Origin: Candidatus Bathyarchaeia archaeon
GTDB taxonomy: Archaea > Thermoproteota > Bathyarchaeia > Bathyarchaeales > Bathycorpusculaceae
Assembly: GCA_030019335.1 (NCBI GenBank)
Contig: JASEET010000005.1
Location: 25,962-89,961, forward strand
DNA: 64,000 bases
Direction of reading: 5' to 3'
Part shown: one piece after another, positions 20,972 through 49,529 of the stretch
How positions within the stretch are numbered: the stretch's first letter is position 1
How the letters are laid out: each line of letters opens with the position of its first letter
The notes under the pieces: generated by a model
Seen by the model: the letters and a program-made list of their open reading frames with translations, nothing else
Database searches by the model: none
Told to the model about the DNA's origin: nothing
Translations under genes and position numbers: made by a program

Positions 20972-21134
20972 AGCATGGGATTCTCCATTTTTATGTTAGC
21001 GTTTATGATTATTATTCCCTGCATGAAAAGGTTGTTGAATTGTTCCTTTTAACTTTTCAAACTCCTACGTATTATCACTAGGCTTCTCTCATAAAAAAGA
21101 GGGGTTAAGAATCGCGTAAATATCAAATTTAGTA

Positions 21135-21172
21135 TTCTTCTGGTTTCTTCTTCTTTTCTGGTTTCTTCTTTC
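21135..21172 (-). repeat. purine-rich 18-nt tandem repeat (2 units, GAAGAAACCAGAA core) forming a 16-codon Lys-rich micro-ORF (21129-21179, MSGKKKPEKKKKPEEY)
   Basis: The minus strand reads ATGTCTGGAAAGAAGAAACCAGAAAAGAAGAAGAAACCAGAAGAATACTAA. Confidence 0.6.
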
Positions 21173-21450
21173 CAGACATTCGAGTTGCCTCGAGAAGCAA
21201 GTCAACTAATATGCACTTAAAATTTTACGGTTTCCAAGATAGTTTGAAAATTGAAGTTTTTAGATAAAAAATGCTAAAATAAGCCTGTAGTCGAGTTTAT
21301 AATAATCTAGATTTTTCTTTTTCGGAATCTTTGGCGAAAATAACTGGAATTTTGAAAGTGAGATGTGTTGTCTTGTGATGTGTATCAGCGTTAAGCATAG
21401 CAAACTTTATCTTAAGGTGGGTTGCTTCAGCAATCTATCGTTGGAATCAC

Positions 21451-22206
21451 ATGGTTTACTATGTAGTGTACAAAGCTTCCAAAAACCATAACAATCGAAG
21501 CCTAATCCCTACTCGTTTAAGGGCTATTGGTTGTAGGCAGATAAACAAAACCTTTTGGGAATTTGATAAGGAGAAAGTGGCTAGGGTTTTGAAGTTGCTT
21601 GAAAAGAATCAGTCTGTACTCCTTAAAAGAACTAGGGAAGTTAAGAAGCGTTTAATTGTAAAGGGCGTGGTTCAAGATCTTGGGAGTTTAATCGTAGTTT
21701 CGATTAAGGCTCCTAAAGATGAAAAGGAGAAAATATGGAAGCTTGTGAAAAAGACTCCTTGCATCCGTCTTTGCAGGCGTGTTTACGCTTTTTATCAACG
21801 GCACTCTCGATTTGATTCGGAAAATAAGTTAATTGATGCTAGACGTTTAGTAGCTTTCGTAAGAGAGCTTGGCGGAGAGGTTAAATTGTTTCCTAAAGTT
21901 GTTATTCCTAACGAACGTTTAGTTCAAAGGTTGGTTGATGAAACAAGGCAACATGCGGAAAAGGAGATTTTTGACATAATTCAAAATTGTATGCGGCTTT
22001 ATGATCAGTGTCTTAAAAATGAGTGTGATTCAAAGCAGTTTAATGATGTCTTACGCAAGCTTAGAAGGCAATTTGTCATTGTTAAAAGGAAGGCTGGGTA
22101 TTATGAAAAATGGATGGGGCTTGACTTTTCAAAAAGTCTGATGAAAGCATATAGGGCTCTGATAAAACTGAAACGTTATTCCGGATGGCAAAAGTTGGCT
22201 GCATGA
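21451..22206 (+). CDS. orphan hypothetical protein; two N-terminal beta-alpha-beta modules with a Cas2/VapD-like sequence pattern plus a helical C-terminal domain
   Basis: 251 aa. MVYYVVYK...RLRAIGCRQINKTFWEF...SVLLKR and LIVVSIKAP...IWKLVKKTPCIRLCRRVYAF. Flanked by about 470 and 230 nt of non-coding DNA. Confidence 0.35.
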   Translation: MVYYVVYKASKNHNNRSLIPTRLRAIGCRQINKTFWEFDKEKVARVLKLLEKNQSVLLKRTREVKKRLIVKGVVQDLGSLIVVSIKAPKDEKEKIWKLVKKTPCIRLCRRVYAFYQRHSRFDSENKLIDARRLVAFVRELGGEVKLFPKVVIPNERLVQRLVDETRQHAEKEIFDIIQNCMRLYDQCLKNECDSKQFNDVLRKLRRQFVIVKRKAGYYEKWMGLDFSKSLMKAYRALIKLKRYSGWQKLAA

Positions 22207-22436
22207 AAGGTTTTCATAGGCAATCCTTTTGTTAAGAAAGAACTTGGGAGTTTATCGAGTAAACTAGCAAAAAATAGGTTATTATTTTGAATAAACCACG
22301 AATTTTTCAATTTTTCTTGAATTGCATGTTTTTTTGCCGAGCATTGGTTTAGAGGGTTTAGATTTTTAGTTCTTTATCTTTTAAAAATCTTTAACTGAAA
22401 GTAGCTGATGTGGGTTTTTTCGCGGAGGTAAAAACT

Positions 22437-22505
22437 ATGCGCTTCGAAGAAGAAGAATGGGAAGAGGAAGAAGAATGGGAAGAGGAAGAAGAAGAGGAGT
22501 GGTAA
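22437..22505 (+). CDS. 22-codon acidic micro-ORF MRFEEEEWEEEEEWEEEEEEEW
   Basis: GGAGGT lies 7 nt upstream of the ATG. The ORF is built from three 18-nt repeats (GAAGAAGAATGGGAAGAG x2 plus a variant). Confidence 0.4.
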   Translation: MRFEEEEWEEEEEWEEEEEEEW

Positions 22506-22686
22506 AGAACCTTTAACATACTAAATCATATCCCCTTTTATTACTCCAGAAATATGTAAATGTATTTTTTGTTTGCATTAAAAGCTGAGTATGTTAAGCA
22601 TTTCAGATTTGATTAATTTTGTTATTTGGTAGCAATTCTTATTTAAGCGGGATAGGTTAAAGATAGTTTTGTTATGGAGTGTCTGT

Positions 22687-22980: not shown

Positions 22981-23369
22981 AAACAACTAACTTCAACCCG
23001 TTTCCTCACCCTCTTTGCGATGCGCAAAAATTGACCTATACCTACCCCCTATAGCTTTTTGATACCCCTCCCCTACCTTTCCTGTGTTAGGAATATTTGG
23101 TTATCCGTGCAATTATTACGGGATACCTCCTATCATTTTTTGCAACAAAGTATCTATCACATAAGTTTGCAGATTTTCTGTGTAAGCTTTGCGAAATACA
23201 CATCCTCTAGGTTTCTGCAATGATCGTCTAATAGGCTCCAAATAGGTTTGCTTGTTTTAGAGATTTTCTGTTGCAATACTGATAGCCTTATGGTTTTCGG
23301 CAAGACGGCTTTGCGAGGTAGTGGCTAAGGCTTATTAAGACTATTGAAAGCTAATCTTTTGGGAAGTTT

Positions 23370-23840
23370 ATGCCAAAAAAGAAAAGTTGGTCTGAAAAAC
23401 TGAAAGATAGCAAAGGTTTGCCGAAAGTAGAGAGAATTACTGATAAAATGAGTAAAAGATGGGGTACAGGTACTGTGGTTATTCCGGCGCCTATGGAAGT
23501 TGATGAAATTATGAGAAGGGTGCCTGAAGGAAAACTTATTACAATTAATGAAATTCGCTTGGCTCTTGCTAAAAGACATGGAGCGACTATCGGTTGTCCT
23601 ATGACTACGGGTATTTTTGCTTGGATTGCTGCTAATGCTGCTGAAGAACAGAGACAAAAGGGTGAAAAGGAGATTACTCCTTACTGGCGTACGTTAAAAA
23701 CTGGTGGAGTGATAAACCCGAAATATCCTGGTGGGGTTGAAGCCCAAAAGAAACTTTTAGAAAAGGAAGGACAGAGAGTAGTTCAGAAAGGCAAGAAATA
23801 TGTTGTTGTTGATTACGAAAAATCATTAGCAAAAATATAG
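23370..23840 (+). CDS. MGMT/alkyltransferase-like DNA-binding-domain family protein (no active-site PCHR Cys)
   Basis: 156 aa. VPEGKLITINEIRLALAKRHG...ITPYWRTLKTGGVIN resembles the MGMT C-terminal DNA-binding fold with PYWR in place of PCHR. Confidence 0.45.
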   Translation: MPKKKSWSEKLKDSKGLPKVERITDKMSKRWGTGTVVIPAPMEVDEIMRRVPEGKLITINEIRLALAKRHGATIGCPMTTGIFAWIAANAAEEQRQKGEKEITPYWRTLKTGGVINPKYPGGVEAQKKLLEKEGQRVVQKGKKYVVVDYEKSLAKI

Positions 23841-23955
23841 CGCTACAACGTTGTTTTTCCATGCTGCCTCCATATGAAGATACCAAGAATTTAGAAGTAG
23901 TTCCAAAGCTAAATCGTCAGACATTTCCACAAATTTAGCATTGCTACGTTGTAAT

Positions 23956-25215
23956 TTACTGAGTTTCGGCGCAAATGTAATTTTTATTTTGTAGTTCTAG
24001 TGGGCATCCTCCGCCGCAGATTTGCAGTTGCAGGCAGTCTTTGCATTTTGGCTCCGCATATCCTCGTTTTCTTATTTGCACTGCAAGAGGATGGTTCCAG
24101 ATTTTCTGCCAATCATCTTTGAGAATGTTGCCGAGGCTTTCAAAGTAGCTTTGACATGGGTAAACGTCGCCATTTGGCCCTATACACATGTTGATCCTTG
24201 CGGCTGAGCATGATTTGACGCCTAAGCCCAGTTTAACGGGGTCTAAGCGGCAGTATTGAGTTGGTGTGTACCATGGAAACTTTAATCCGAGCTGATTGGC
24301 TTTGTCATGAATTTTGGGTAAAAGTTCATTTAATGTTTCAAGAGGTAAGGCAAATTCTTTGCTTATAGCATTTGCCTTTCCTGAGTAGATTAAGCTGTTG
24401 CATCCGAAAGAAGCAATTCCAAGTTTTTCAGAAAGTCTATTATTTCTAAGAAATTGGCGGCGTTATATTTGCTTAGAGTGGTGTTTGTGGTCAGGTAGAT
24501 TTGTGTCGGAACAGCATTCTTGATTCCGGCAACAGTTTCTTTCCAGCTCCCTTTGGTTGCAGTCATTGAATCATGGGTTTTAGGTTTGTGAGATTCAAGC
24601 GTGACTTGAACGAAGTCTAATCCGGTTTTTCGAGAGTTTCAACGTAAGCTTTGTCTTTTAGTCTTCTTCCGTTGGTGATAAGTCCGGTGACCATTCCCTT
24701 GTTCCGTGCGTAAAACAATAGTTCTGGCAAGTCTTCGCGTAGGGTTGGTTCGCCTCCGGTGAAGGTTAAGATGAACACTCCGATTTGACTAAGAGTGTTA
24801 ATGACTTCTTTCCATTGTTCTGTTGTAAGCTCAGAAGTTTTGTGTGGTCCGCCTGCATAACAGTGGACGCAGTTGTTTTGACATCTGAAAGTGAGCGCTA
24901 AATCCATGCGTAGTGGTGCTGTATAGTGTTGGCTGAAGGGTTCCACGGTTTTTACGTCGAGAAAGGATATGGGACAGACTTTTTCGGTCTGTGCCAGTGT
25001 GCTGATTGTGTAGACGATTTTTCGTAGTCTTTCTTTGCTGTTTTCGCGTCTACTCTGTACATGCGGCGAACCTTTTTCAAGGCGGCATCTGTGGGTAGTC
25101 CTTGCATGAAAAAGTAGGCGTAGGCTGTCGCTGTCTCGTTAAGATAGAGGACTGTGTTGGCGTTAATGACCATGAGCCCTTGTTGGTCTGGTTCGATGCG
25201 AAGCTGAAGCGCCAA
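23956..25215 (-). pseudogene. PqqD/RRE-domain + radical SAM + SPASM peptide-maturase-like gene, split into 4 pieces by three 1-nt shifts in T5 runs (24424-24428, 24626-24630, 25018-25022)
   Basis: Own frame-corrected translation: ...LRIEPDQQGLMVINANTVLYLNETATAYAYFF...RMYRVDAKTAKKDYEK/IVYTISTLAQTEKVCP...LALTFRCQNNCVHCYAGG...FTGGEPTL...ETLEK/TGLDFVQVTLESH...DFLKK/LGIASFGCNSLIYSGKA...CIGPNGDVYPCQSYF...CKDCLQLQICGGGCP. Confidence 0.75.
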
Positions 25216-25302
25216 ACCAGCAAATTCGTCTTTTCCTCGATAGGTGTAGCAGCCTTGCGGAATCTTGGGCGGGCGTAAGATTTTATGTAAGAAGCTTATG
25301 AT

Positions 25303-25767
25303 TTAGCCCACTCTTCCGCTCGCACAGGCGCAGGCGCATGATACACAGGCACAGACGCATGCACATGCTGCGCATGCACAGACGCAACCAGCCTCGTGGC
25401 GAGCAGGCTCGGTTGAAGACTTGGCGGCTGGCATTGGAATAATTGCGTTGGTGAATTTTTCAAGGTTAGCTACGATGTTGTTTGAGGTGTTTTCCACCGC
25501 GGTTGCAATGTTGTTTGCGAAGTTGGCGCCTGGAATTGTTGGTGGTTTCACCGATTGAGTCGGAGTTTCAACGTTTGGTTTGTATGTGGGATTGGGGTGG
25601 TAGTGTTGATAGCCGTACCAGTACCATAGCCAGTATGAGCTTGGTTCGAAGGCTGTGTCTTGGAATGTTGTTTGTGTGCGCGATTGATAGTTTGGGTCTA
25701 GTAAGAGCCACAAGAGTTGTTCGTCATAAGCTTTTGAGGCTAACTCTGGTGTGCCTGCCTGTTCCAC
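25303..25767 (-). CDS. hypothetical protein with aromatic-rich centre and C-terminal alternating-Cys core (candidate RiPP precursor or metal-binding tail)
   Basis: 154 aa ending ...ARHEAGCVCACAACACVCACVSCACACASGRVG. GTG start at 25767. Its stop is followed in the same frame by the rSAM reading frame (annotated TTG start 25215, 87 nt downstream). Confidence 0.55.
   Translation of the reverse strand: MEQAGTPELASKAYDEQLLWLLLDPNYQSRTQTTFQDTAFEPSSYWLWYWYGYQHYHPNPTYKPNVETPTQSVKPPTIPGANFANNIATAVENTSNNIVANLEKFTNAIIPMPAAKSSTEPARHEAGCVCACAACACVCACVSCACACASGRVG
25318..25389 (-). repeat. low-complexity TGY/GCN codon-alternation tract encoding (Cys-Ala/Val)n
   Basis: The plus strand reads GCTCGCACAGGCGCAGGCGCATGATACACAGGCACAGACGCATGCACATGCTGCGCATGCACAGACGCA. 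Confidence 0.8.
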
Positions 25768-25961
25768 TTGTTCCCAAGCCTTCGCTACAATTTTTCTGTA
25801 CTAGTCGATTGTGTCGCGTCTACAGTATCCGCGTATTTTTTGTTCGACGGTGTCTCTGAGGAGCATTACTGTTTGGGCTAGTTTTCCTTCGTCTAGGTTT
25901 CCGCAATCATCATCGAGACTTATAAGTGTAAAAGCTAAAAAATCCGTGTGGAGATGTTATC

Positions 25962-26555
25962 TTGTCTAAGAGGGAGCTTTTAGACGCTATTGCCGCAGGA
26001 GTCATCGTTTGTCGTAAATGTGAACTTTGGAAAACCCGTAAAAATGCTGTTCCAGGCGAAGGCAGTCCAAACAGCCAAATCATGTTTATTGGAGAAGCGC
26101 CTGGCTACTGGGAAGATATCCAAGGAAGACCATTCGTAGGTGCGGCTGGAAAATTCCTTGACACTCTGCTTTCTGAAATTGGATTTTCAAGACAAACAGT
26201 CTTCATCGGCAACATTTTAAAATGTAGACCTCCAAAAAACCGTGAACCCTTACCCGACGAAATTCAAAAATGCACACCATACCTGAACAGCCAAATTCAA
26301 ATCATCCAACCAAAAATTATCGTTACTCTCGGAAACTACTCAACAGCCTACATCTTCTCCAAAGCCACTCTACCATTCAACGGAATAACCCAAGCTCACG
26401 GAAAATTCTATAAAGCATCCATTTTAGACATGCGAGTAACAATGTTTCCAACATTTCATCCAGCCGCATCGCTCTACAGTGCAAGATACAAAGAACAGCT
26501 GATTCGTGATTTCCGCACACTACAGCATGAACTTAAAGAAAAGGGACTTATTTAA
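25962..26555 (+). CDS. udg: family 4 uracil-DNA glycosylase ([4Fe-4S] type)
   Basis: CRKCELW..., GEGSPNSQIMFIGEAPGYWEDIQGRPFVGAAGKFL and HPAA motifs; TTG start. Confidence 0.9.
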   Translation: MSKRELLDAIAAGVIVCRKCELWKTRKNAVPGEGSPNSQIMFIGEAPGYWEDIQGRPFVGAAGKFLDTLLSEIGFSRQTVFIGNILKCRPPKNREPLPDEIQKCTPYLNSQIQIIQPKIIVTLGNYSTAYIFSKATLPFNGITQAHGKFYKASILDMRVTMFPTFHPAASLYSARYKEQLIRDFRTLQHELKEKGLI

Positions 26556-27487
26556 TCACTTATCTTCTTAGCAGCCTTTATATCATTAAGCAACTCTTCT
26601 ATATCCCTGTAGGTTTTAGACGGCAAATCAGCCAGAACAGCACCAAGCCTAACCTGTTTTCCCTCCTCAACCTCCACAAGCCTCCACCCAAGCTTTTTGA
26701 TTAACATACTCTTCGAAGCAGGATACCGCGTCCTTTCAACAACACGTCTAATAGAGGCTAAACCCGTCGAACCAGTAATTTTCGGAAAAACACCCTTCAA
26801 CAAGTATTCCATGAACCGTACTCCATCCATAAACATTGAAAGGTTGTTAAACAGAACGTAAACCTCTTTCCCCTCCCTTTCATACGCACTGATTAACTCC
26901 TTCAGCTCTTGCAGTTCAGAATCACTAAACTGGTAATAATACATTCGTTCACCCAAACCGTGAAGCCTAAAATAAGCAACCTCGCCAGTGTAAGCTGGCA
27001 TAACCCTAAACGGGTCAGTAACATGCACAACATCCAATCTCTCCAAAACCTGCCCAAGCCTTTTGCGAACCTCAGCACTCTCCCACGCCGGTCCACGAGT
27101 CTCCCAAACCAAAACCAAACCTTCACGATCCACCGTCCCAAAAAACTTCTCAGCATCCCCAAGCCTATCAGGTCTAAAAGAACCCGGCGTTTGAATAAGC
27201 AATATTCTCGAGTTTAGAGTCTTGCATATCCACTTCATACGCTCAAAAGCCTGAAGACGTGCTTCCTCAACTTTCAGTTTCGCCTTATGACTTATGTCCT
27301 GATGCGCCTTAACAGTGAATTCAAAATTTCCGGGCACCTTTTCACGCCAACCTTCAACCGTTCTTTCCCGTGGATACTGATAAAAAGTGCTGTTCAACTC
27401 TACCAAGCTAAAGTTTTCGAAATATTTCTTCATGGATGTTGGAAAACCGCAACACCCAACCCTAATCATCATAACCGCCTTATACAC
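26552..27487 (-). CDS. DUF72 family protein with C-terminal extension
   Basis: IRVGCCGFP...YFENFSLVELNSTFYQYP...WREKVPGNFEFTVKAHQ is the DUF72 signature. Confidence 0.8.
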   Translation of the reverse strand: MYKAVMMIRVGCCGFPTSMKKYFENFSLVELNSTFYQYPRERTVEGWREKVPGNFEFTVKAHQDISHKAKLKVEEARLQAFERMKWICKTLNSRILLIQTPGSFRPDRLGDAEKFFGTVDREGLVLVWETRGPAWESAEVRKRLGQVLERLDVVHVTDPFRVMPAYTGEVAYFRLHGLGERMYYYQFSDSELQELKELISAYEREGKEVYVLFNNLSMFMDGVRFMEYLLKGVFPKITGSTGLASIRRVVERTRYPASKSMLIKKLGWRLVEVEEGKQVRLGAVLADLPSKTYRDIEELLNDIKAAKKISD

Positions 27488-27716
27488 TTACTTTCGGGGT
27501 GAGTGGACTGGTCTGCCAAGCTTCTCTTAGCCAAAACCTTGCAAACACTTAGTAATACAGACATGCGAATACTATCCTCACATAATTGTATATTCTGGTT
27601 TTTCACGTTTTAAACTTATAGTTTACATTTCAACTATTGCGCCCTGCATTCCTTTTTTCTTGCCTGGAATATAAAAACAATAGAGAAAGTTAGTAAAAAA
27701 GCGCGTGCTTATGGTG

Positions 27717-28657
27717 TCACTCTAAAAGACTCTTTACTTTCTCAAAAATGTCTTGAGCGTATATTATCTTGCCGCAGTGGGAGCATGTTGTTTGAGACCC
27801 ACTTTTCGGAAATTCAATTGTTGCACCGCATTCGGGACATTTCAATACTTGCATAACTAAACTACCCTTCTCCATGTAAGTTTTTAAGAAAGAAAAATCC
27901 AATATAACGTGGAGTCGTTCCTTTTTCTTTTCCACATCAATTTCTTTTCTTCTAATTGCAATAGCATTTTCTATGGTTGGCTTAAATAATTCCAAAAATG
28001 CATATTGCAAATTGAATGTATTTTCGCCCTTGCTGTCCACCACAGATATCTTCTTGGGTAACTGCCAGTTGCTGCTGTCTCCAGTATCCCCCGAAACCCC
28101 ATTGATTTCTTCCGGTGGTATTTCATACACTAATAGAAACGATGTAACTTTTTTTTTAGGAAACCTCGTTCGCGCCTCGCTAACCAACGCAATCTTTGAG
28201 TTGACAATAGGAGAATTCCAGACTCTTGTGTTGTAGATTCTACTGTATTTCCCTTTATAACTTTCTTTTCACGGACTTCCCTTGATCCTTCCCACTGGTG
28301 CAATAGTTTTTCTCCCTTCTCTGTTATCACAGCTTTTGAAACATCTGAACTAACGTTCTTCGACAGAAATTCCCAGTTAACTTTTTTATCAAGTTTTAGA
28401 TTTTTCCAGAAATCAATTGAAAGACACTTTCCAATAACAGTAAATAAAGGCGTCTTTGTGCTGATAAGTGTATACACGCCACTTCCATCTTTTGGAAGTT
28501 CATGTAGGGTAAGTTCCAATATTTTTCTGTTCTTTATGAAGAGCCGCCATTTGGTCATACAAGTCAGACATTGAGCGTACTTGCCTATTATTCCAGACAA
28601 CTTATAGCCATTAGTCGAGCCACATATTGGACATTTTGGGATTTCTTCCTGCATCAA
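27717..28657 (-). CDS. Zn-ribbon / PH-like (GRAM/YokE-type pattern) / Zn-ribbon protein, split by a frameshift in a T9 run (28149-28157)
   Basis: Track ORFs 28130-28657 and 27717-28187 overlap at the run. Adding one A gives ...GILLLSTQRLRWLARRERGFLKKKVTSFLLVYEIP.... N-terminal CPICG...CLTC and C-terminal CPECG...CSHCG. Confidence 0.5.
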
Positions 28658-41023: not shown

Positions 41024-41524
41024 TCAGATCATTCGCCTTATTAGCTCGTTGATTTTTTCTTCACGGTATCCCAGCTCGCCTCCCATACCACAACCCTTTT
41101 TTATTTTTCCTTTGAAACCTTTAGTTGGCGGATGCAACCTAAAAACTGGTTGCATATTTGGCAATTTCCGATATTCAACATGACAGTCGAATATTGCTCC
41201 CGCAAGGTCTTCTAATGATTTGTAACCGATTTTCTGTGCATATTCATCTGTTAACTTCTTGTTTCCAGCAAGTCTTCCTCTTTCTTTTATTAGCATGTTT
41301 ACGATTTCCTTTGAGGCTTCGCCCCATGTAACGAAATTTTGTGCTGTTTTCAGCATTCCGAGGAATGATGGGCGATTGTCGATTAACACAGCGTAATTGT
41401 TTCTTATCAAGTGAAGCATTTGGAGGGTTTCTCTGGCTTGTCGTGGGGCCCTAATGGTTCCGCGAATTCTTATGGCTATTATACATTTGCGTTTCTTTGC
41501 TTCTTTAGACACTATCTCACCCAA
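41024..41524 (-). CDS. rpl30: 50S ribosomal protein uL30
   Basis: IAIRIRGTIRAPRQARETLQMLHL. Confidence 0.9.
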   Translation of the reverse strand: MGEIVSKEAKKRKCIIAIRIRGTIRAPRQARETLQMLHLIRNNYAVLIDNRPSFLGMLKTAQNFVTWGEASKEIVNMLIKERGRLAGNKKLTDEYAQKIGYKSLEDLAGAIFDCHVEYRKLPNMQPVFRLHPPTKGFKGKIKKGCGMGGELGYREEKINELIRRMI

Positions 41525-42153
41525 TCAACTGGAGTTATGAGACTGTAAGTTTTCTTTAATGCGTCGAAAACAGCATATGCAAAGGAGGGAACAGTTCTCG
41601 TTGAACCATAACTTCTTGTCCAGCAATCGTTTATGCCCGCAAGTCCAAAAATGACTTTTGCCACTTCGCTGGCTACAAGACCTAACCCTCTTGGTCCAGG
41701 GATAATAACGATTCTTACGGCGCCGCATTTTCCCTCGATTTGGAATGGCGCTGAATGAGGCTTGCCACATCCACATTCCCAGCTTCCACATCCCCTTCTA
41801 ACTGGAACGATGTTTAGACGAGCGTTCATAGCAGCCTTTTCTATGGCTGTTCGTACCTGACGTGCTTTTCCAGACCCTAAGCCAATGTAGCCGTCTCTGT
41901 TTCCAACAGCAACTATTGCCTTAAACCTTGATTTTTCGCCAGCGTCTGTTTGTTTTTGAACCAGATTTATGTTTATGACTTCTTCTTGGATGTCAGGAAG
42001 TAACGTGTCCACAATTTGTGGTTCATGTATTCGTAAACCTTCCATAAAAATCTCTTCAATGGATGTGATTCTACCCTCTTGTATCATTTTTCCAAGACTA
42101 GTTCTAGGAATCCACTGCTCAAGATTTACTGCTGTTCTCCTCGATCGTCTCAA
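41512..42153 (-). CDS. rps5: 30S ribosomal protein uS5
   Basis: [32 protein letters not shown]. Confidence 0.93.
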
Positions 42154-42755
42154 GTCTTCTTACCTCCACGGAATGTTGCAAGTATACTTTTTTTAATTTG
42201 TTCAAAATGTTTTGGAAGTTTTTCCGGGGAGAGCTTCTGTTCCAGATATTTTGAAAATCTAGCTTGGTATTCTTCGGAGTTGGAGGCTAAACTTTGTGCG
42301 TACTCTGCAATATGTTCGCCTTTTATCCTCTTTTCATCCGGCAGCTTCTCTTCGCTGTGGGGCACGTTCACTCCAGCGTCTAAAACACCCTTTAACACTG
42401 CGAAAACTCTCGCGCCCTTTGTAGGCGAATGTAATCCTGTGTCTAAAATGGCTTCTTTTACACCTTCTGCTTTGGCTTTTAATCCGCAGAGAAGACCCGT
42501 TAGATAGGCTGCTGGAAGACTTCCTCTAGGAGCCTTCCACCCATACTTTTTAGCTAGTTCTCCGCCATGTGCTGAAAGTATGGCTTCGTCTCCATGAGGT
42601 TTAGCCACAATTATCTGAGCAATCATGTTTTTGAGTGAGCCGCGGACTACCAAGCGTGGTTTTCCAGAAAGCACTAACGCCTTCCTTGCTCTGTAATCTG
42701 TTTTTCCCTCCCTTCTTCGTCGAAATGGAACACAATAACGTGGTCCCTTTGCCAT
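42150..42755 (-). CDS. rpl18: 50S ribosomal protein uL18
   Basis: [21 protein letters not shown] 42755 forms an ATGA overlap with the eL19 stop. Confidence 0.92.
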
Positions 42756-43210
42756 CAGCGTTTCCTCCAAAGTTCATGCGCCTTTAAGTAGCGTTCCATG
42801 TCGGCAATAGACTCGAATCTTCCGCTGCTTGCCATCTTGTAAAGCTTTCGATAAGTGTTTTCAGTGATTATTCTGCTGGTTTTTAGTTCACGCAGCCTCT
42901 TTCTTAAGGCTCGAATCTTGCTCATCCACGCCTCTTTCTTAGAGATTTTTGCGTGGGACGCCCCGCTTCTGCTGCCTGGCACACGTCTCCGCCCCTTCTT
43001 TTTCTTTTCATGTAGAATTCGTGCTCTCGCGCGGCTTACACCCTTTTCCGGCAGTGATTTAATGACGCCTTCATGAATTAGTTTTCTGATTTCATCTCTA
43101 GTTATAGCTACTTCCACATCATCTATTCTTTCAGAGTCTATCCACACGCGGTTTTGTCCAACTTTAAGTATCTGTGCTGCTAGACGTCGTTGACTTTTAA
43201 GACCTGTCAC
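42755..43210 (-). CDS. rpl19e: 50S ribosomal protein eL19
   Basis: [22 protein letters not shown]. Confidence 0.92.
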
Positions 43211-43719
43211 TGTTTTTCTGTCCTCCTTTTCAGTTTCTTTGACTTCTTTTGTCTCCTTTTCGGTTTTTCTTTTTCTACTATTTCCGTTTCTTCTTCCTTT
43301 TCTTCTTTTCTAAACGCTTCCTTAGCTTCTTTAAGATTTAGAATAGTTATTTTCCTCTTTCTCGCTTCAACAAGGATTTTAGCTCTTTTTCTTTTACCAA
43401 CCGTGTGTGCAATTCTTACGGCTTGGGTTTTCGGGTTGATTTCTGCAAGTTCTTCAGCATTGTATACTAAAACTTCTCTGTAGCCTGACGGGTGAAGCCC
43501 CCTTGCCGCTTTTGGTCCTCTGTATCCAGCGGTTACGGTGGGCGGCCAACCCTTGATTTTCCTTCGCATCTTGTTGTCTAATCCTCTTGGTCTACGCCAG
43601 CTTTTCTTCAAGCGTTTGTACCGCCAGCTTTCTTGTCTAACGAATTTAGGCTTCTTCTTTTTCATTCGTTCTCTCAGTTTCAACGTTTTTTTCACGGAAG
43701 CTGCGTCTTGTTCTGTCAT
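43207..43719 (-). CDS. rpl32e: 50S ribosomal protein eL32 with Lys/Glu-rich C-terminal tail
   Basis: RQESWRYKRLKKSWRRPRGLDNKMR; tail ...KEEKEEETEIVEKEKPKRRQKKSKKLKRR. Confidence 0.9.
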   Translation of the reverse strand: MTEQDAASVKKTLKLRERMKKKKPKFVRQESWRYKRLKKSWRRPRGLDNKMRRKIKGWPPTVTAGYRGPKAARGLHPSGYREVLVYNAEELAEINPKTQAVRIAHTVGKRKRAKILVEARKRKITILNLKEAKEAFRKEEKEEETEIVEKEKPKRRQKKSKKLKRRTEKQ

Positions 43720-44264
43720 TCTTCCATTCCCTCGCTTTTTTTATACACGTATATGCCGTCCAAGAAAACACGGGGGTCTTTCTTTTTCACTTTGGTGGCT
43801 TGTTCGATGTTTGCTGCTGTTTGGCTTACATCTTCGAGGTTTATGCCTTGAACTATTACGTCTTCGCTTTGAATCTTGATTTGGACGTCGCCCACTATTT
43901 TGGCTTTTCTTGCGCTGCGTTCACCTGTGAAGTTTTCAATCAAAACTGTTTTATCCTTAACCTTAACTGAAATTGGGAAGTGGGAGAAAACTATTTTGAG
44001 TTTGTATGTGAAGCCTTTTCTAACTCCAGTAATAATGTTTTGGATGTGTGAACAAATTGTGCCTACAAGGGCTGCCTCTTTCTTACGTGGCCATTCAGTC
44101 CATATGCGAATGGTTTTTCCTTGAAGCTCAATTGAGAATGGAGCGTGAGAGAAGTCTCGGGTTAACGTTCCCTTTACACCCTTAACCGTGACTTTTCTCC
44201 CTTCGATTGTCACTTCTACGTCGTCTGGAACTTGAATGGTTTTTGAGACTTCTATGGCTCGCAT
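43716..44264 (-). CDS. rpl6: 50S ribosomal protein uL6
   Basis: Two-repeat uL6 pattern (VTIEGRKVTVKGVKGTL...). Confidence 0.9.
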   Translation of the reverse strand: MRAIEVSKTIQVPDDVEVTIEGRKVTVKGVKGTLTRDFSHAPFSIELQGKTIRIWTEWPRKKEAALVGTICSHIQNIITGVRKGFTYKLKIVFSHFPISVKVKDKTVLIENFTGERSARKAKIVGDVQIKIQSEDVIVQGINLEDVSQTAANIEQATKVKKKDPRVFLDGIYVYKKSEGMEE

Positions 44265-44278
44265 TTGAGGTCACTTTT

Positions 44279-44680
44279 CTAATAAACGAACGCTAGCAAT
44301 CTGCCTCCGATGCGTTTTTGCTTTGCCTCTTTGTGGGATAACACTCCCTTGGGGGTTGAGACAATTAATATGCCTACTTCTCTTGATGGGAGGAATTTTT
44401 TCTCCCATTCTTCAAATTTGTCCACTTTCGCCGGAAAACGCGGTCTGATGCCTCCACATTTGTTTATTCTTCCTAAAAGTTGAACCTTGAATTTTCCGGA
44501 GCGACCGTCATCAATGAATTCGAATTCTCCGATGTAACCATTTAACTGCATAACCCTTAAAACTCTGCCTAAAAGTTTAGAGGCTGGACTAATTATGCAT
44601 TCACGTTTGTTGCGCATCTCATTGTTTATGATTGTTGTTAAACCGTTTGCCAAAGGCTCCATCGCGATTTTCCTCATCAT
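44279..44680 (-). CDS. rps8: 30S ribosomal protein uS8
   Basis: [19 protein letters not shown]...[13 protein letters not shown]. Confidence 0.9.
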
Positions 44681-44841
44681 TCATATTTTTTGAACCCGAG
44701 TTTTTTGGCTACTTCTCTAAAACAATGCCGACATAAATATAAATTGTAACGTCGAATAACTGGTCCGTAAGACCCGCACCTGCTGCATGATCTGGTTCCT
44801 TTGCCGTATTTTCTTTCCTTTTTAGGTTTCTTTTTGCCCAT
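44677..44841 (-). CDS. rps14: 30S ribosomal protein uS14 (zinc-binding type Z)
   Basis: Own translation (below the track cutoff): [58 protein letters not shown] overlap with uS8. Confidence 0.88.
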
Positions 44842-44859
44842 ATGCATTTTCTCCAATAA

Positions 44860-45399
44860 CTATACTATTTCAACTCTCAAAACATCTTTAACGAACACCA
44901 TGGTTTCTTTAGGTGTTAAAACATGTTTTGAGCCGATTTTCGCTTTTTGTTTCCGCCTGTTTTTCACTCGGTATCCGGGACGGCTAAAGGAGATACAGAC
45001 GTCCATGCCGAATATGCCCACTTCAGGATCATATTTTACTCCTGGAATTTCTATGTGCTCTTTTATGCCGAAGGAAAAATTGCCAAATTTGTCAAAACAA
45101 TCTTTGGAGAATTTATTGTCAACTACGGGCAAAACTTTCTTCAAGAATTCTATTGCCCTATGCTTTCTAAGCGTTACGAGACACGCTATTGGTTCACCCC
45201 TTCTGACTCCGAACTCTCTAATGGTTTTCTTGGCTTTTCTCTTGCATGGATTTTGACCAGTTAAATCTTTTAGAACCCTTGCAGCCCTTTCCAAAGGTTC
45301 CCCTGACTTTCCAACACTCATGTTAACAACAACTTTCTCAATTCTTGGTCTAAGCATAGGGTTTTCCTCCCATCTCTTTCGAATTTCATCCTCAGACAA
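44860..45399 (-). CDS. rpl5: 50S ribosomal protein uL5
   Basis: NPMLRPRIEKVVVNMSVG...FGIKEHIEIPG. Confidence 0.92.
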   Translation of the reverse strand: MSEDEIRKRWEENPMLRPRIEKVVVNMSVGKSGEPLERAARVLKDLTGQNPCKRKAKKTIREFGVRRGEPIACLVTLRKHRAIEFLKKVLPVVDNKFSKDCFDKFGNFSFGIKEHIEIPGVKYDPEVGIFGMDVCISFSRPGYRVKNRRKQKAKIGSKHVLTPKETMVFVKDVLRVEIV

Positions 45400-46159
45400 C
45401 TTCAGCTGCCTCCGGTATGGATATAAGGGGCTGTTTTTCGCCTATTGCGAAAACAAGGTTCAAGATTGTTTGGTAACGGTTACCTCTTCTATCCTCGATT
45501 GTTACAAGGATGTTTCTACGCTTCTTCCCCTCCGCCTTTTCGATTTCAACTATTTTGCCATATTTCCCAATGTTTTTCCCGCCAGTTATTATCGCAAAAT
45601 CATTCTCTTTCATTGTTATATATTCAAGAATTTGCCTTTCTGGAAGGCTTATTTTCACCGTGTCAAGAGTTTTATAAACGTCCTCTTGCGGATTTTTAGG
45701 GTCAGCAACCTTCACCAATACGTTTGAGCCGTCGTGAAGGCTAAGTTGCACATGTCCATTCTTAACAACAGTTTTGTTTTCTATTCTGCATAGCTTGAAG
45801 CTTGCTTCTCCTTTATCGGTTGGATGGAGGATTAAGCCTTTGCTGGAAGGTAGTATACGGAAGCATTTGTCAACATCCGGTATAGAAATAACATCCATCA
45901 AACCTACTGGAAAGTCGTCTTCACGCCTAACCTTTCCATCAACATACACTTTTCCTTGCGAAACTATTTTTTTAGCCTCTTTCCTTGTTTTGGCGAATCC
46001 GAGAATGTCCCGTAGAATTACAGCCAGAGGCAGACAGTTTCCAAGGGACTGAGGTCCAGGGGAGGGTTTCACAACCCAGACAGACTCCTTTCTATGGATT
46101 GGCCAGAATCTCGGCGCGGGTTTACGCTTTAACCCTGTGGATCCCCCTTTCTTACCCAA
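45392..46159 (-). CDS. rps4e: 30S ribosomal protein eS4
   Basis: LKRKPAPRFWPIHRKE...; TTG start after GGAGG. Confidence 0.92.
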   Translation of the reverse strand: MGKKGGSTGLKRKPAPRFWPIHRKESVWVVKPSPGPQSLGNCLPLAVILRDILGFAKTRKEAKKIVSQGKVYVDGKVRREDDFPVGLMDVISIPDVDKCFRILPSSKGLILHPTDKGEASFKLCRIENKTVVKNGHVQLSLHDGSNVLVKVADPKNPQEDVYKTLDTVKISLPERQILEYITMKENDFAIITGGKNIGKYGKIVEIEKAEGKKRRNILVTIEDRRGNRYQTILNLVFAIGEKQPLISIPEAAEVV

Positions 46160-46291
46160 ATTATGTTCCTCCTTCAGTTTTCTTGGCGGTTTTTCGTTTA
46201 GCTCTTGTTTTCTTTGCTTTCGGCTTCTTTTCCTCTTCGGCTTTCTTTTTCTTCGTCTTTTTCACTCTTTTCCGTTCCTTCGGTTTTTCTT

Positions 46292-46819
46292 CTATTTTTT
46301 CTCGGCTGGTTTTTTAGCCACCTTTCTTCTTTTCGGCCTCTTTTTTGGGATTTTCTCTTCCATGCCCCCTTTTTCTTTAATAACCTCTTCTTTTATCTCC
46401 ACAACTTCTTCTGGAGGTTTCTCTTCAATCCCTTCCATTTTCTCGCGGGCTTCTTTTCTTCTTTCCAGAACTTTCTTTCGCCATTTGTCATCAAGGTTTA
46501 AGCCTGTTATCATAACCTTTGAGGGGTGTATCGGAACAAATATTGTTGTTCCGTCAACTTTTTCTCGTGTTAAGCCTTCAACATAAATTCTATATTTCTC
46601 TCTGTCTATGCGTGTGACTTTTCCTTCGAATCCTTTGTGGTCTCCTCGCATTATGTGAACTGTGTCGCCGCTTCTAACCGGTAGGACTCTCACTCCATGT
46701 GAGGTTCTTAGTTTTGGTGAGAGGGGTGCTGCGAAATGTTTGTGGCGTATGTGGTCTGGTGCTTGGAAGAGCATTTTTCTCTGTTTTGTTGGTTTTGTTA
46801 CTGGTTTTGTTGCTTGCAT
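46292..46819 (-). CDS. rpl24: 50S ribosomal protein uL24 with long Lys/Glu-rich tail (tail may continue to 46161 if the T6 run 46295-46300 is one base short)
   Basis: VRSGDTVHIMRGDHKGFEGKVTRID KOW core. The 132-nt gap to eS4 keeps an open K-rich frame. Confidence 0.88.
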   Translation of the reverse strand: MQATKPVTKPTKQRKMLFQAPDHIRHKHFAAPLSPKLRTSHGVRVLPVRSGDTVHIMRGDHKGFEGKVTRIDREKYRIYVEGLTREKVDGTTIFVPIHPSKVMITGLNLDDKWRKKVLERRKEAREKMEGIEEKPPEEVVEIKEEVIKEKGGMEEKIPKKRPKRRKVAKKPAEKK

Positions 46820-46829
46820 GTGCTTCCCC

Positions 46830-47270
46830 CTATATTATTATGCTGGCGGCGCTTGCTATTCTCGGCCATCTTTCAGCAGCCTCTTTCGCCACGGGTCCGC
46901 GAATGTCTGAGCCTTTCATTTCTCCATCTGGAGTTATTATCACTGCTGCGTTATCTTCGAATTGAACCCAGACGCCTTCAGCCCTTCTGTAGGGTTTTCT
47001 CTGTCTTACAACCACTGCATGGAAGATTTTCTTTCTCATGTCCGGTGTTCCATGTCTAACTGAAACTGTTATTCTGTCGCCCACTGCGGCTGATGGGATA
47101 CGTCGTAAACGTCCTTTATAGCCCATCGCTTGAATTAGTCGCAGTTCTTTGGCTCCTGTGTTGTCTGCACATTTCAGGATTGAACCAGCGGGTAGTCCTC
47201 TTGAAATTTTTGGTCTCTGCCCTATCATTCCCTTTGCAATTAACGCCCTCATTTTTGCCCTTGCAGCCAT
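46830..47270 (-). CDS. rpl14: 50S ribosomal protein uL14
   Basis: LKCADNTGAKELRLI...AVVVRQRKPYRR. Confidence 0.92.
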   Translation of the reverse strand: MAARAKMRALIAKGMIGQRPKISRGLPAGSILKCADNTGAKELRLIQAMGYKGRLRRIPSAAVGDRITVSVRHGTPDMRKKIFHAVVVRQRKPYRRAEGVWVQFEDNAAVIITPDGEMKGSDIRGPVAKEAAERWPRIASAASIII

Positions 47271-47272
47271 TT

Positions 47273-47590
47273 TTACTTCTCCTCCAGTTTTTCAACAACA
47301 ACAAATGCTACTGTTTTGCTTATGGGACGGCATTCAGCTATTCTGACGCGGTCTCCTTCCTTCGCGTTTATGCATGGTGGGTTATGACTTGGGATGCGGC
47401 TGCTTCTTCTTTCGTATCTCATAAATTTTGGAACGTAGTAAAAGTAGTCGCGTTTAACAATGACTGTTTTATCCATTTTTGCGCTGACAACTGCGCCTTC
47501 CAAGACGCGGCCTCTTACTGGAAGGTCGCCGTGGAAGGGACAGTTTCTGTCATTACATGTTTTCTTAGGCTTTTTAAAAGTCAGTGACAT
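47273..47590 (-). CDS. rps17: 30S ribosomal protein uS17
   Basis: CNDRNCPFHGDLPVRGRVLEGAVVSAKMDKTVIV. Confidence 0.92.
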   Translation of the reverse strand: MSLTFKKPKKTCNDRNCPFHGDLPVRGRVLEGAVVSAKMDKTVIVKRDYFYYVPKFMRYERRSSRIPSHNPPCINAKEGDRVRIAECRPISKTVAFVVVEKLEEK

Positions 47591-47872
47591 TTACCACAAC
47601 CTCCTAATGCGCTTTTTGAGGCGGTCTTCAGGTCTTCCTACGAGAAGTTTTCCGTCAATTTCAACAACCGTTCCATCAGAAAACCTGAAATGAAAAACAG
47701 CTGAATCTTTTACAACGATTTTTCTTTTCTTTTCATGTAAAATTGTGAGGGTGTTTCGTGTTTCATCTATTACCTTGCCAGCTATTCCAACGTAACCGGG
47801 ATTTCTGCTTTTGGCAACTTTCACTTCGGTTCCAATAAATTCATAGCGGATTATTTCTGGCGTTACTTTCAT
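47591..47872 (-). CDS. rnp1: RNase P protein component 1 (Rpp29/Pop4)
   Basis: EFIGTEVKVAKSRNPGYVGIAGKVIDETRNTL; canonical position between uL29 and uS17. Confidence 0.85.
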   Translation of the reverse strand: MKVTPEIIRYEFIGTEVKVAKSRNPGYVGIAGKVIDETRNTLTILHEKKRKIVVKDSAVFHFRFSDGTVVEIDGKLLVGRPEDRLKKRIRRLW

Positions 47873-48108
47873 TTCTCTTTCTTCCCCTCAGTCTTCGCTT
47901 TTCCTAGCCCAAGTTTTTGCTCGTTCTCTATGGTTAGTATTCGGGCAATTGTTTTGCGTAGCTCTCTTATTCTAGCTGGATTTTCTATTGTACCGCCTGC
48001 TTTAATCATAGTTTTTAATCTGAGAAGCTCTGTTCTAAGCTCGTTGAGTCTTTTCATTCTTTCTTCAGAGGGTATATCTCGTATTTCTTTGACTCGCAGT
48101 ATTGGCAT
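47869..48108 (-). CDS. rpl29: 50S ribosomal protein uL29
   Basis: LNELRTELLRLKTMIKAGGTIENP. Confidence 0.88.
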   Translation of the reverse strand: MPILRVKEIRDIPSEERMKRLNELRTELLRLKTMIKAGGTIENPARIRELRKTIARILTIENEQKLGLGKAKTEGKKEK

Positions 48109-48786
48109 CTACTCGGTTGCCTCCTTTTCTTCGCTTTTTTCTTCAGGTTTTTCTTCGGCTGCGGCTTCTAACGTTTCTTCTTCGGGTGGAAGAGCTTCAA
48201 TTATTTGGATTTTGTCTGGAAACTTTGCGTCAGGCAGCATTATCCTAACTTTTACGCCAAACATGCCAGGTTTCAGTTGGACGTGAACTTCGGCTTTTCG
48301 CATGTACTTTAGTGCTGGGTCTCCACATTTCGGCAGGTATCCAGCCCTGAATTTTTCATATCTTGCCCTCTCGGTTCTTAATTTTCCGCTTATGATTATT
48401 TCTGCCCCTAGGGCTCCAGATTCCATAACACGGTTTAAAGCCCAGAATCCAGATCGCCTAAAATGTACGCCTCTTTGTAGGGCTGAAGCGATGCGTGAAG
48501 CGACAACATAAGCATTCAATTCGGGAATTTCCATTTCGGAAACTGAAATTTGCGGGTTTGAAACATTAAATTTCTCCTCCAAAATTTTTGCAAGATCTCT
48601 TATTGTTCCTCCACCACGCCCTATTACCAAACCTGGACGCATCGCATAAATCACTATGTGGGTTCCTAACGGGGTTTTTGAGATGGTTACTCCGCCGTAT
48701 CCGGCTCTTTCAAGTCTTTTTTGTAGAAATTCGTCAATTTCTGTTCTTTTTATGGATTCTGTTACGAAATGTTTGACAACAGACAT
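48109..48786 (-). CDS. rps3: 30S ribosomal protein uS3 with acidic C-terminal tail
   Basis: KH-domain uS3 pattern. ATG 48786 overlaps the uL22 stop; the track start 48840 adds an Arg-rich artefact. Confidence 0.92.
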   Translation of the reverse strand: MSVVKHFVTESIKRTEIDEFLQKRLERAGYGGVTISKTPLGTHIVIYAMRPGLVIGRGGGTIRDLAKILEEKFNVSNPQISVSEMEIPELNAYVVASRIASALQRGVHFRRSGFWALNRVMESGALGAEIIISGKLRTERARYEKFRAGYLPKCGDPALKYMRKAEVHVQLKPGMFGVKVRIMLPDAKFPDKIQIIEALPPEEETLEAAAEEKPEEKSEEKEATE

Positions 48787-49274
48787 TATGCTTCTTCTCC
48801 TGTCTCTGCTTGTTCTTCTAGGGCTACTTCGATGTGGCATAGGGTTTGGAATTTTGGTGTGGTTCTTCCAAAGGCTCTTGGAATGTACCGCTTTATTTTC
48901 ATGCCTGGATATGCGGATGCATGAATGATGCGTAGTCTTTCGGTGTCTAAGCCCTTATATTCGGCGTTTGCTTCTGCTCCTTCAAGTACCTTTAGAATGT
49001 GTTTTGCTACTTTTACCGGATATCTGCCAGCATAAGCCTTTTCTAGTCCGTGGCGGTGTCCAGCCTTCTTTTTGAATCTTGTGAAGGGAACAGGCCTTTT
49101 TTTGGCTATAACATCTTTAAGATACTGTTTTGCCTGAATAAGCGTCATACCCTTAATTGTTTTGCATACTTCCCGTGCTGATTTATGAGATACTCTAACT
49201 TCTCGTCCGCTTGCTTTCACGGTTTTTTCCGGGTCTAGTTCTTCTTCTGTTATGGAGTATCCCCATTTTGGCAC
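48786..49274 (-). CDS. rpl22: 50S ribosomal protein uL22
   Basis: PKWGYSITEEELDPEKTVKASGREVRVSHKSAREVC. GTG 49274 has GGAGAG 8 nt upstream. The 240-aa track ORF is an artefactual fusion. Confidence 0.88.
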   Translation of the reverse strand: MPKWGYSITEEELDPEKTVKASGREVRVSHKSAREVCKTIKGMTLIQAKQYLKDVIAKKRPVPFTRFKKKAGHRHGLEKAYAGRYPVKVAKHILKVLEGAEANAEYKGLDTERLRIIHASAYPGMKIKRYIPRAFGRTTPKFQTLCHIEVALEEQAETGEEA

Positions 49275-49342
49275 TTTTTGGTCTCTCCAACTTGCAATTG
49301 AACAGCGGTATGGTGATTTATATGGTTTTCCATACTCGCTCG

Positions 49343-49508
49343 CTATTTCCGTTTTCTGAACAGTTTTTTCCCATTCTATGTCTGCGACGTATTCAAAACC
49401 CACTTCCAACAGTTTGCATGTTTCCTCTAACATTTCAGCAACTTTCACATGGAACTCGCTGTTTTCTGTTTGGAATATAGCCTGTTCAATGTTTATGTAA
49501 ATCTCCAT
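49343..49508 (-). pseudogene. small archaeal gene ending in the recurrent ...GFEYV...LFRKRK* motif, shifted by one extra base in a T6 run (49364-49369)
   Basis: MEIYINIEQAIFQTENSEFHVKVAEMLEETCKLLEVGFEYVADIEWEK, then in the -1 frame LFRKRK-stop (TAG 49343-49345). The motif is recognised from memory of archaeal small proteins; I cannot name the family. Confidence 0.45.
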
Positions 49509-49529
49509 GTTTTGAATGTTTTTATGGCG

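Follow-up and report, generated by a model that had tools for sequence, protein, structure and literature searches.

The DNA considered here is a stretch of 64,000 nucleotides (nt) from contig JASEET010000005.1 of Candidatus Bathyarchaeia archaeon (the window, to which all window coordinates refer). Its minus strand carries, between positions 23956 and 25903, what sequence comparison indicates is very probably the non-functional relic of a conserved gene cassette. In the relatives used for comparison (loci named L0xx and proteins named P0xxx), this cassette joins a membrane protein of about 540 amino acids (aa), ending in a tail of alternating Cys and Ala residues, to a radical S-adenosylmethionine (rSAM) enzyme with a C-terminal SPASM domain and an N-terminal domain resembling an RRE (recognition element for RiPPs, the ribosomally synthesized and post-translationally modified peptides). 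The system appears to be one of RRE-guided rSAM/SPASM maturation, with a class of substrate and a context for which no description was found. The interest lies in the family so revealed, the feature in the window being itself a dead remnant.

A decayed cassette in the window

The remnant contains an open reading frame (ORF) on the minus strand at 25303-25767, with a GTG start, whose 154-aa translation shows an aromatic stretch rich in Trp and Tyr (SSYWLWYWYGYQHYHPNPTYKPN) and the C-terminus ARHEAGCVCACAACACVCACVSCACACASGRVG, with 10 Cys; its final 27 residues form the tail CVCACAACACVCACVSCACACASGRVG. An initial annotation made from the sequence alone had described this aromatic middle and 10-Cys end correctly, but had taken the product for a long-leader precursor, while it is the C-terminal third of a type-I membrane protein of ~540 aa. 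When full-length homologs were compared with the whole window by tblastn, only their residues ~346-516 matched, at 25902-25390, and the homology to the 540-aa protein extends upstream to ~25903, past an in-frame TAG at 25803-25801. What is left is the last ~200 codons of the gene, a truncation that the annotation had missed in treating a fragment as a complete ORF. Neither the N-terminal part of the tail-protein gene nor a second copy of it was found within the window by tblastn, and no ORF of the EEPKW type (the Zn-ribbon partner described below) was found there.

The enzyme reading frame begins in the same frame after the stop codon of the 154-aa ORF (25305-25303), as had been noted before, and continues in four pieces separated by three frame changes. 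The TTG at 25215, proposed earlier as the start, does lie in that frame, but the native start corresponds to 25299-25297, where the ATG of the relatives is now ATA. After frame correction the enzyme shows 87-90% aa identity to the intact proteins P0104 and P0100, and its matches to Pfam Radical_SAM (PF04055, E value 1.6e-24) and SPASM (PF13186, E 2.6e-11), together with the CQNNCVHC motif, uphold the assignment to the radical SAM and SPASM class. The SPASM motif is complete, with CSAARINMCIGPNGDVYPC, CKDCLQLQICGGGC and a final Cys (pattern C-x9-15-G-x4-C ... C-x2-C-x5-C-x3-C ... C).

The extent of the damage can be read from L089, a metagenome contig of 45.6 kb that is syntenic with the window at 88% DNA identity. 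In this contig the gene order is UDG, a 109-aa Zn-ribbon gene, the 540-aa tail protein, the 448-aa enzyme, DUF1805, CDP-alcohol transferase, DUF4438, CBS proteins and amidohydrolase. The window lacks ~1.6 kb of the L089 sequence, a stretch with the Zn-ribbon (EEPKW) gene and the beginning of the tail-protein gene (its first ~341 codons), and the UDG gene of the window abuts the deletion junction. The part that remains carries five lesions: the TAG, the change of ATG to ATA and three losses of a single nt (Table 1). On the other hand, 20 other window genes give full-length domain matches, including the direct neighbours and a ribosomal-protein operon (among the intact neighbours are UDG, DUF72, EamA, DUF4438 and CDP-OH transferase); this marks the damage as local, and frameshift noise affecting the window in general was rejected as its cause. 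For both relic genes, the ratio of nonsynonymous to synonymous substitution rates (dN/dS) is 0.13 when the window is compared with L089, against 0.12 for an intact enzyme pair of similar divergence and 0.10-0.19 for flanking genes. Because the relic ratio equals that of the intact pair, the inactivation is recent, and an old pseudogene under relaxed selection was discarded on the same ground.

Two points speak against the cassette being dead: all three frameshifts fall at A-runs, as is typical of errors in sequencing homopolymers, and a second intact copy may exist elsewhere in the genome. A live cassette whose lesions are all errors of assembly or sequencing would also fit the absence of any sign of relaxed selection in dN/dS, and long-read metagenome-assembled loci of the same family are broken in similar ways. 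The deletion, the TAG and the start-codon change stand apart from the homopolymer caveat, however, and with ~1.6 kb absent, the UDG gene abutting the gap and 20 other genes of the window giving full-length domain matches, a live cassette is very hard to credit. As the cassette has been lost here, at least one lineage can do without it.

Frameshifted tail or enzyme genes occur as well in L002/L045, L022, L041, L044, L048, L056, L061, L072 and L086, nearly all of them from bins with names starting in MFD, and some of these loci show frame-shifted tails such as CMCLCLRLCFMCLCMC. The breaks are probably assembly errors, which would inflate the apparent pseudogene counts for the family. In the relic cassette (23900-25900), the coding strand contains more C than G, giving minus-strand genes a plus-strand GC skew of +0.13 to +0.24; the skew is opposite in sign in the neighbouring minus-strand DUF72 gene (26000-27500).

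Table 1. Coordinates of the relic cassette and its lesions in the window, matching blocks of contig L089, and hydrophobic segments of the intact L089 tail protein (UDG, gene abutting the deletion; TRF, Tandem Repeats Finder; AF2, AlphaFold2; TM, transmembrane).
Feature	Position	Strand	Basis
Tail-protein gene, 3' remnant, ~codons 342-540, holding the 154-aa ORF	25303..25903	-	tblastn, blastn
27-residue tail CVCACAACACVCACVSCACACASGRVG, 10 Cys, 9-residue internal period	25306..25386	-	translation, homolog constraint, TRF 27-nt period
In-frame TAG, Tyr in homologs (DTID*YRKIV vs DTI[DE]YYR[KR]IV)	25801..25803	-	homolog comparison
Junction of ~1.6-kb deletion relative to syntenic relative	25904..25952		blastn vs L089
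RRE-rSAM-SPASM enzyme pseudogene (448 aa in intact relatives)	23956..25299	-	frame-corrected comparison
ATA where relatives have the enzyme ATG start	25297..25299	-	L089 MSLLRKILRPP vs window (I)SFLHKILRPP
Frameshift 1, one base missing beside A-run, ~25017	25015..25020	-	pairwise alignment with L089, frame change
Frameshift 2, one base missing beside A-run, ~24629	24627..24632	-	alignment with L089, frame change
Frameshift 3, A6 in L089 to A5 in window, ~24428	24426..24431	-	alignment with L089, frame change
N-terminal PqqD/RRE-like domain, native residues ~16-104	24989..25254	-	AF2 of P0104, SkfB alignment, Pfam PqqD in homologs
CQNNCVHC radical-SAM cluster motif	24860..24883	-	sequence motif
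SPASM domain: C-x12-G-x4-C, CKDCLQLQICGGGC, final Cys	23959..24252	-	Pfam, motif
Window 25903-23957 = L089 2859-4808, 88% identity, three 1-nt gaps			blastn
Window 26496-25953 = L089 700-1243, UDG gene			blastn
Signal peptide, ending VSA	L089 protein residues 2-29		hydropathy
Single TM segment, then RKKPY	L089 protein residues 226-250		hydropathy
Tail as third hydrophobic segment, Kyte-Doolittle >=1.6	L089 protein residues 510-540		hydropathy

The intact tail protein and its Cys-Ala tail

Relatives of the tail protein were collected in three ways. A search of 5.8 billion proteins returned ~100 relatives, all of them from metagenomes or Bathyarchaeota bins and all with the tail; a pattern scan, with one genome taken for each species, detected the tail protein in at least 141 species, nearly all labelled Bathyarchaeia or Bathyarchaeota, and 80 loci were fetched; and a profile search of 1.84 billion representative proteins gave 391 relatives, some of which carry the source labels Chloroflexi, Anaerolineae, Deltaproteobacteria, Cloacimonas, Edwardsbacteria and Eremiobacteraeota. 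The archaeal origin assigned to the window at the outset is supported by these labels and by its synteny with L089. In loci with enough flank the native protein has 540-553 aa and starts with MVK followed by a hydrophobic, signal-like segment. Most of the ~100 relatives had only 186-270 aa but sat on contigs of ~1-3 kb, and for this reason the 229-270 aa of the database homologs was rejected as the native size.

A hydropathy scan of the 540-aa L089 protein revealed three hydrophobic segments, the tail being the third (Table 1). The positive-inside rule predicts that the N-terminal ~200 residues, a putative DUF2207-like ectodomain, lie outside the cell, and that the C-terminal ~290 residues with the tail are cytoplasmic. 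Archaeal and bacterial members can be aligned over their whole length. The last parts of the ~290-aa cytoplasmic domain are a long conserved helix, then a short linker and the tail. One archaeal member, P0221, matches Pfam DUF2207 (PF09972) weakly (18.8 bits for a gathering score of 24.4, E 0.002) and seven other members do not match it, while some bacterial members are named 'DUF2207 domain-containing' in NCBI and UniRef; the part of the protein that DUF2207 would cover is absent from the window. No NCBIfam model matches the tail protein, no solved structure gave a match above noise, and a Pfam comparison of the 154-aa product at E values up to 0.1 gave no metallothionein family. The leader of NHLP/Nif11 type invoked in the initial annotation has no counterpart either, as neither this nor any other family of precursor leaders was matched in Pfam or NCBIfam.

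No part of the protein is more constrained than the tail, which is under extreme purifying selection in the homologs. The 79 tails compared (78 related loci and the window) comprise 78 different nucleotide sequences, yet these yield no more than 10 versions of the 22-residue core peptide, and none of the 10 Cys, six of the Ala, Val15 or Ser16 ever changes. The codons in use include TGC and TGT, all four Ala and all four Val codons and both families of Ser codons. Because synonymous codons vary freely while the peptide stays fixed, the tail cannot be attributed to chance or to a repeat in the DNA, and a low-complexity tract or chance ORF was discarded. In the alignment of archaeal and bacterial members the invariant block reads CACACAC-xx-CACACA-G-G, and two types of tail can be distinguished, type A ending in CACVSCACACAGGGVG and type B in CACACACAGCACACAGGGR, the latter as ...GGG-CACACACAGCACACAGGGR in many of the 391 relatives. 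The core type, which had not been recognised at first sight, is indeed absent from Pfam and NCBIfam and was not found in the literature searched. Upstream of the core, on the other hand, the dipeptide preceding the tail is variable (in 78 tails, AD 24, SS 8, AS 8, AG 8 and others), so there is no conserved cleavage site of the double-glycine type; the Ala-Gly proposed for that role is the motif of 8 tails out of 78, AD being the commonest. As to the origin of the tail, its coding DNA at 25322-25386 consists of 2.4 copies of a 27-nt unit with 81% match (TRF), equivalent to a period of 9 residues, which suggests an internal duplication.

Linkage of the tail protein, the enzyme and a Zn-ribbon protein

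A homolog of the enzyme, with 51-84% identity to the corrected window enzyme, adjoins the tail gene on the same strand in 82 of 82 loci (a few of them cut by contig ends or N-runs), with a median distance of 169 nt between the two matches. The enzyme is nearly always immediately downstream of the tail gene; in L080 the order is enzyme, Zn-ribbon protein, tail protein. Loci fetched through the enzyme also carry the tail gene upstream. The same enzyme family is adjacent in loci of bacterial type, namely L083, L092 (labelled Deltaproteobacteria), L093 (Anaerolineae) and L086 (with a frameshifted enzyme), and in L094, also of bacterial type, the enzyme lies 2.6 kb from the tail gene. The pairing of substrate and enzyme postulated from the window thus extends to every locus examined, and none carried a tail homolog that lacked an rSAM neighbour. 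Loci with a more similar tail protein also tend to have a more similar enzyme (Spearman 0.83, n=70), as shared descent alone could explain. Since the flanking genes change from locus to locus, only the cassette itself is conserved. No recurrent protease, exporter or ABC transporter was seen in the gene neighbourhoods listed.

A third gene is frequently present. It codes for a protein of ~110-130 aa with two hydrophobic (TM) helices and, at its C-terminus, a Zn ribbon with the nearly invariant ending [TAVIS]EEPKW, and lies directly upstream of the tail gene in 60 loci under strict adjacency, with ~20 more just outside the distance window (L089 1514-1843; L083 463-822; L092 5305-5703; just upstream of the tail gene in L003-L082). 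Bacterial loci and L080 also have the protein, L081 and L082 have a version that ends in EEPLW, and no Zn-ribbon gene was found near L094, where the tail protein and the enzyme both occur. This protein may be a third component of the cassette or an alternative substrate of the rSAM enzyme. Pfam, NCBIfam and PADLOC contain no model for the tail protein or for the Zn-ribbon partner, and a role in anti-phage defence was rejected, PADLOC having given nothing beyond a generic viperin-like rSAM similarity. A description of the cassette was not found in the literature searched, whose coverage is incomplete, so that an earlier description is possible.

The enzyme and its nearest structures

Among solved structures, SkfB is the closest to the enzyme in sequence (E 6.5e-21), with an alignment that starts at residue 43 and hence includes the N-terminal domain. 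PqqE and SuiB come next; Foldseek places SuiB, SkfB and PqqE at the top. In the AF2 model of P0104, residues 16-104 form strands at 16-21, 30-35, 41-46 and 49-53 and helices at 55-65, 70-81 and 85-104, with a predicted local distance difference test score (pLDDT) of 57-88, mostly 72-88. This small sheet followed by three helices is the RRE/PqqD topology. The Pfam PqqD model scores 27.1 bits in the L083 enzyme, above its threshold, and 19.6 bits in that of L084. A PqqD/RRE-like N-terminus followed by rSAM and SPASM domains had already been recognised in the window, and the closest solved relatives are maturases of RiPPs. None of the NCBIfam rSAM/SPASM models reached its cut-off with the window enzyme or with four archaeal and bacterial homologs; the best match was NirJ2 (149 bits for a cut-off of 500), and the models for SkfB, PqqE, mycofactocin, ACGX, SCIFF-type and WgkB enzymes were all far under theirs.

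Proposed function of the intact cassette and alternative explanations

As far as can be judged from the sequences, the enzyme probably modifies the Cys-Ala tail. The RRE of the enzyme would dock on the conserved helix IPGADFANNIATAVENTSNNIVANLEKFANAILP just upstream of the tail, a segment that is predicted to be helical by AF2 and whose PG..FA motif is largely conserved between archaea and bacteria, the Ala being invariant. The SPASM auxiliary cluster(s) would then bind thiolates of the tail, 5'-deoxyadenosyl radical chemistry would abstract hydrogen from neighbouring Ala, Val or Ser residues, and several Cys-to-carbon thioether crosslinks of the sactionine or ranthionine type would arise. Such chemistry is modelled on SkfB, CteB, PapB and QhpD, and by analogy thioether crosslinking is a serious candidate, somewhat short of a probable one. 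Tail and enzyme are both predicted on the cytoplasmic side, and the modified tail would stay on the membrane protein, no RiPP being cleaved and exported. Tentatively, the intact cassette could represent a new class of in-place protein modification by rSAM enzymes, in which a dense poly-thioether or sulfur structure serves as a cofactor, as a metal or electron site, or as a rigid module for signalling within a transmembrane device to which the EEPKW partner also belongs, with no RiPP natural product involved. If the enzyme does modify the tail in place, the function of the cassette is likely to be physiological and not antibiotic, a view drawn from its spread over at least 141 species genomes and several groups of anaerobic bacteria.

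Several results count against this proposal. The Pfam PqqD model matches neither the window enzyme nor its closest relative P0104; the AF2 models are weak, with a pLDDT of 57 for the whole enzyme, 53 for the cytoplasmic domain of the substrate and ~31-35 for the tail, which comes out unstructured, so that they give no docking geometry; the grounds for thioether formation are only the class of the enzyme and the Cys content of the tail; and the Zn-ribbon protein offers another possible substrate, which is considered below.

The alternative that survives best, itself unlikely, is that the tail binds metal or Fe-S clusters in the manner of a metallothionein or a cluster scaffold, and that the rSAM enzyme builds or inserts the cluster or cofactor or is a partner in some other way. 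Metal-thiolate proteins typically contain CxC repeats, the auxiliary clusters of SPASM enzymes bind thiolates of the substrate, and the third member of the cassette is a Zn-ribbon protein. However, the invariance of the Cys is shared in full by the residues that separate them (six Ala, Val15 and Ser16), a constraint that metal binding alone does not need; the enzyme has a putative peptide-recognition domain and is nearest to maturases that form thioether and C-C bonds in peptides; and no metallothionein family was matched.

A lesser chance is given to the C-terminus of the Zn-ribbon protein as the real substrate, for instance through a crosslink centred on its Trp, with some other role for the Cys tail. 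The EEPKW terminus is adjacent in most loci and recurs in bacteria and in L080; the top Foldseek match is SuiB, an enzyme that forms a Lys-Trp crosslink, and the NCBIfam models for WgkB and KxxxW maturases match below threshold. This explanation is weakened by the EEPLW variants, in which the Lys is replaced by Leu, and by L094, where tail protein and enzyme occur with no such gene nearby; moreover, in nearly all loci the enzyme gene abuts the tail gene and not the Zn-ribbon gene.

Still more doubtful is the classical RiPP pathway put forward in the initial annotation, in which a long-leader precursor would be bound by the RRE, crosslinked, cut at Ala-Gly and exported as a small Cys-rich product. 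The RRE-rSAM-SPASM architecture, the RiPP maturases found as closest solved relatives and the strict pairing with a Cys-rich C-terminus would all suit it. Nevertheless, the supposed precursor is a membrane protein of ~540 aa whose domains other than the tail are kept across archaea and bacteria, the residues before the tail are unconserved, no recurring protease or transporter accompanies the cassette, whose flanks vary, no precursor family such as NHLP/Nif11 was matched, and the core is nearly invariant over at least 141 species, whereas typical RiPP cores vary. From the earlier proposal, then, the pairing, the enzyme class, the archaeal origin and the unusual core are supported, and the long leader, the cleavage site and the RiPP product are not. 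Finally, that the tail is a plain hydrophobic membrane segment or lipidation site, left unmodified and adjacent to the enzyme through mere co-regulation, can practically be set aside: it is as hydrophobic as a TM helix by the Kyte-Doolittle scale, but such a segment would tolerate Leu, Ile or Phe, none of which is seen in the tails, and the adjacency is kept across bacteria and archaea despite the changing flanks.

Most known examples of RRE-guided rSAM/SPASM chemistry concern small exported peptides, alongside a few cofactors. If in-place modification of the tail is true, this chemistry also builds permanent structure on a conserved membrane protein, in what is a major uncultured lineage of sediments, and the cassette provides a compact pair of substrate and enzyme for rSAM enzymology. 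The strictly alternating Cys-Ala motif of the substrate is undescribed in the sources searched.

Other features of the window

Two further segments of the window are absent from L089. The first, at 20997-22619, has a GC content of 0.32-0.38, a 251-aa ORF (21451-22206) without a Pfam match and a GAA-rich tandem repeat of 18 nt at 22449-22493, and may be an insertion. The second, at 23092-23957, lies directly downstream of the dead enzyme gene; an ORF at 23370-23840 within it matches the DNA-binding domain of methylguanine methyltransferases below threshold (24.2 bits for a threshold of 27). No tRNA genes were found near the inserted or deleted segments. A minus-strand ORF of 156 aa at 27717-28187 shows a C-terminal Zn ribbon similar to TFIIB, also below threshold (24.7 bits), and, although it lies nearby, is unrelated to the EEPKW Zn-ribbon family. 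The intact ribosomal-protein operon at 41027-49544 (L30, S5, L18, L19e, L32e, L6, S3 and L22) and a fusion of ferredoxin domains with the delta subunit of methyl-viologen-reducing hydrogenase at 60960-62165 served as reading-frame controls.

Comparison with known systems

The enzymes Gms and Tes are archaeal rSAM proteins that modify lipids and have auxiliary clusters, Gms with a SPASM domain. GDGT-MAS (Tes) matches the rSAM core of the enzyme (E 4.6e-11), the match being limited to residues 129-236. In Gms, the N-terminus is a six-helix domain with a hydrophobic lipid pocket (PMC11186832). The cassette enzyme has instead a beta-beta-beta-alpha-alpha-alpha N-terminus in its AF2 model and is tied to a protein partner, and a lipid-modifying function of this kind was disfavoured by the domain architecture and the range of the match. 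Another comparison is the ACGX system (TIGR04340), in which an rSAM/SPASM family has a partner with short Cys repeats. Its model matches the enzyme with an E value of 7.5e-21, but the score of 74.7 bits for a cut-off of 400 leaves the enzyme outside the family, and the tail has no ACGX repeat.

On the side of the substrate, DUF2207 proteins have the same overall layout as the tail protein, with an N-terminal ectodomain, a TM segment and a cytoplasmic part with a low-complexity, Gly-rich C-terminus. They differ in that neither a Cys-Ala tail nor an rSAM partner has been described for DUF2207, and the literature searched contained no paper joining DUF2207 with radical SAM.

Among maturases of peptides, the closest in sequence is SkfB (PDB 6efn), which acts on SkfA, the sporulation killing factor of Bacillus subtilis, and forms a thioether between Cys and an alpha-carbon in a ribosomal peptide. 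The likeness runs from the N-terminal peptide-binding domain through the rSAM core. The enzyme studied here nevertheless reaches only 86.8 bits with the NCBIfam SkfB model, for a cut-off of 300. The auxiliary domain of SkfB is of the Twitch type and its substrate is a short peptide that is cleaved and exported, whereas the cassette enzyme has the full SPASM motif and its putative substrate is the tail of a 540-aa membrane protein. Other RRE-rSAM-SPASM enzymes, PapB with PapA (freyrasin) and CteB with SCIFF, also resemble the cassette in forming several thioethers in Cys-rich cores, some of them with repeated motifs. The precursors of ranthipeptides and SCIFF are nonetheless of ~45-60 aa, with Cys scattered or in CX3D-type motifs; no NCBIfam model of this group reached its cut-off, and none of these systems is known to have a strictly alternating Cys-Ala core carried by a membrane protein.

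Finally, the closest functional analogy to the proposed in-place modification is found in QhpD and QhpC. In this system, an rSAM-SPASM enzyme introduces Cys thioethers in a polypeptide that is kept in a functional protein, as the gamma subunit of quinohemoprotein amine dehydrogenase, with no natural product set free. QhpC is a small soluble subunit, crosslinked to Asp and Glu side chains and exported to the periplasm, unlike the tail protein; the likeness drawn between the two systems is one of function.

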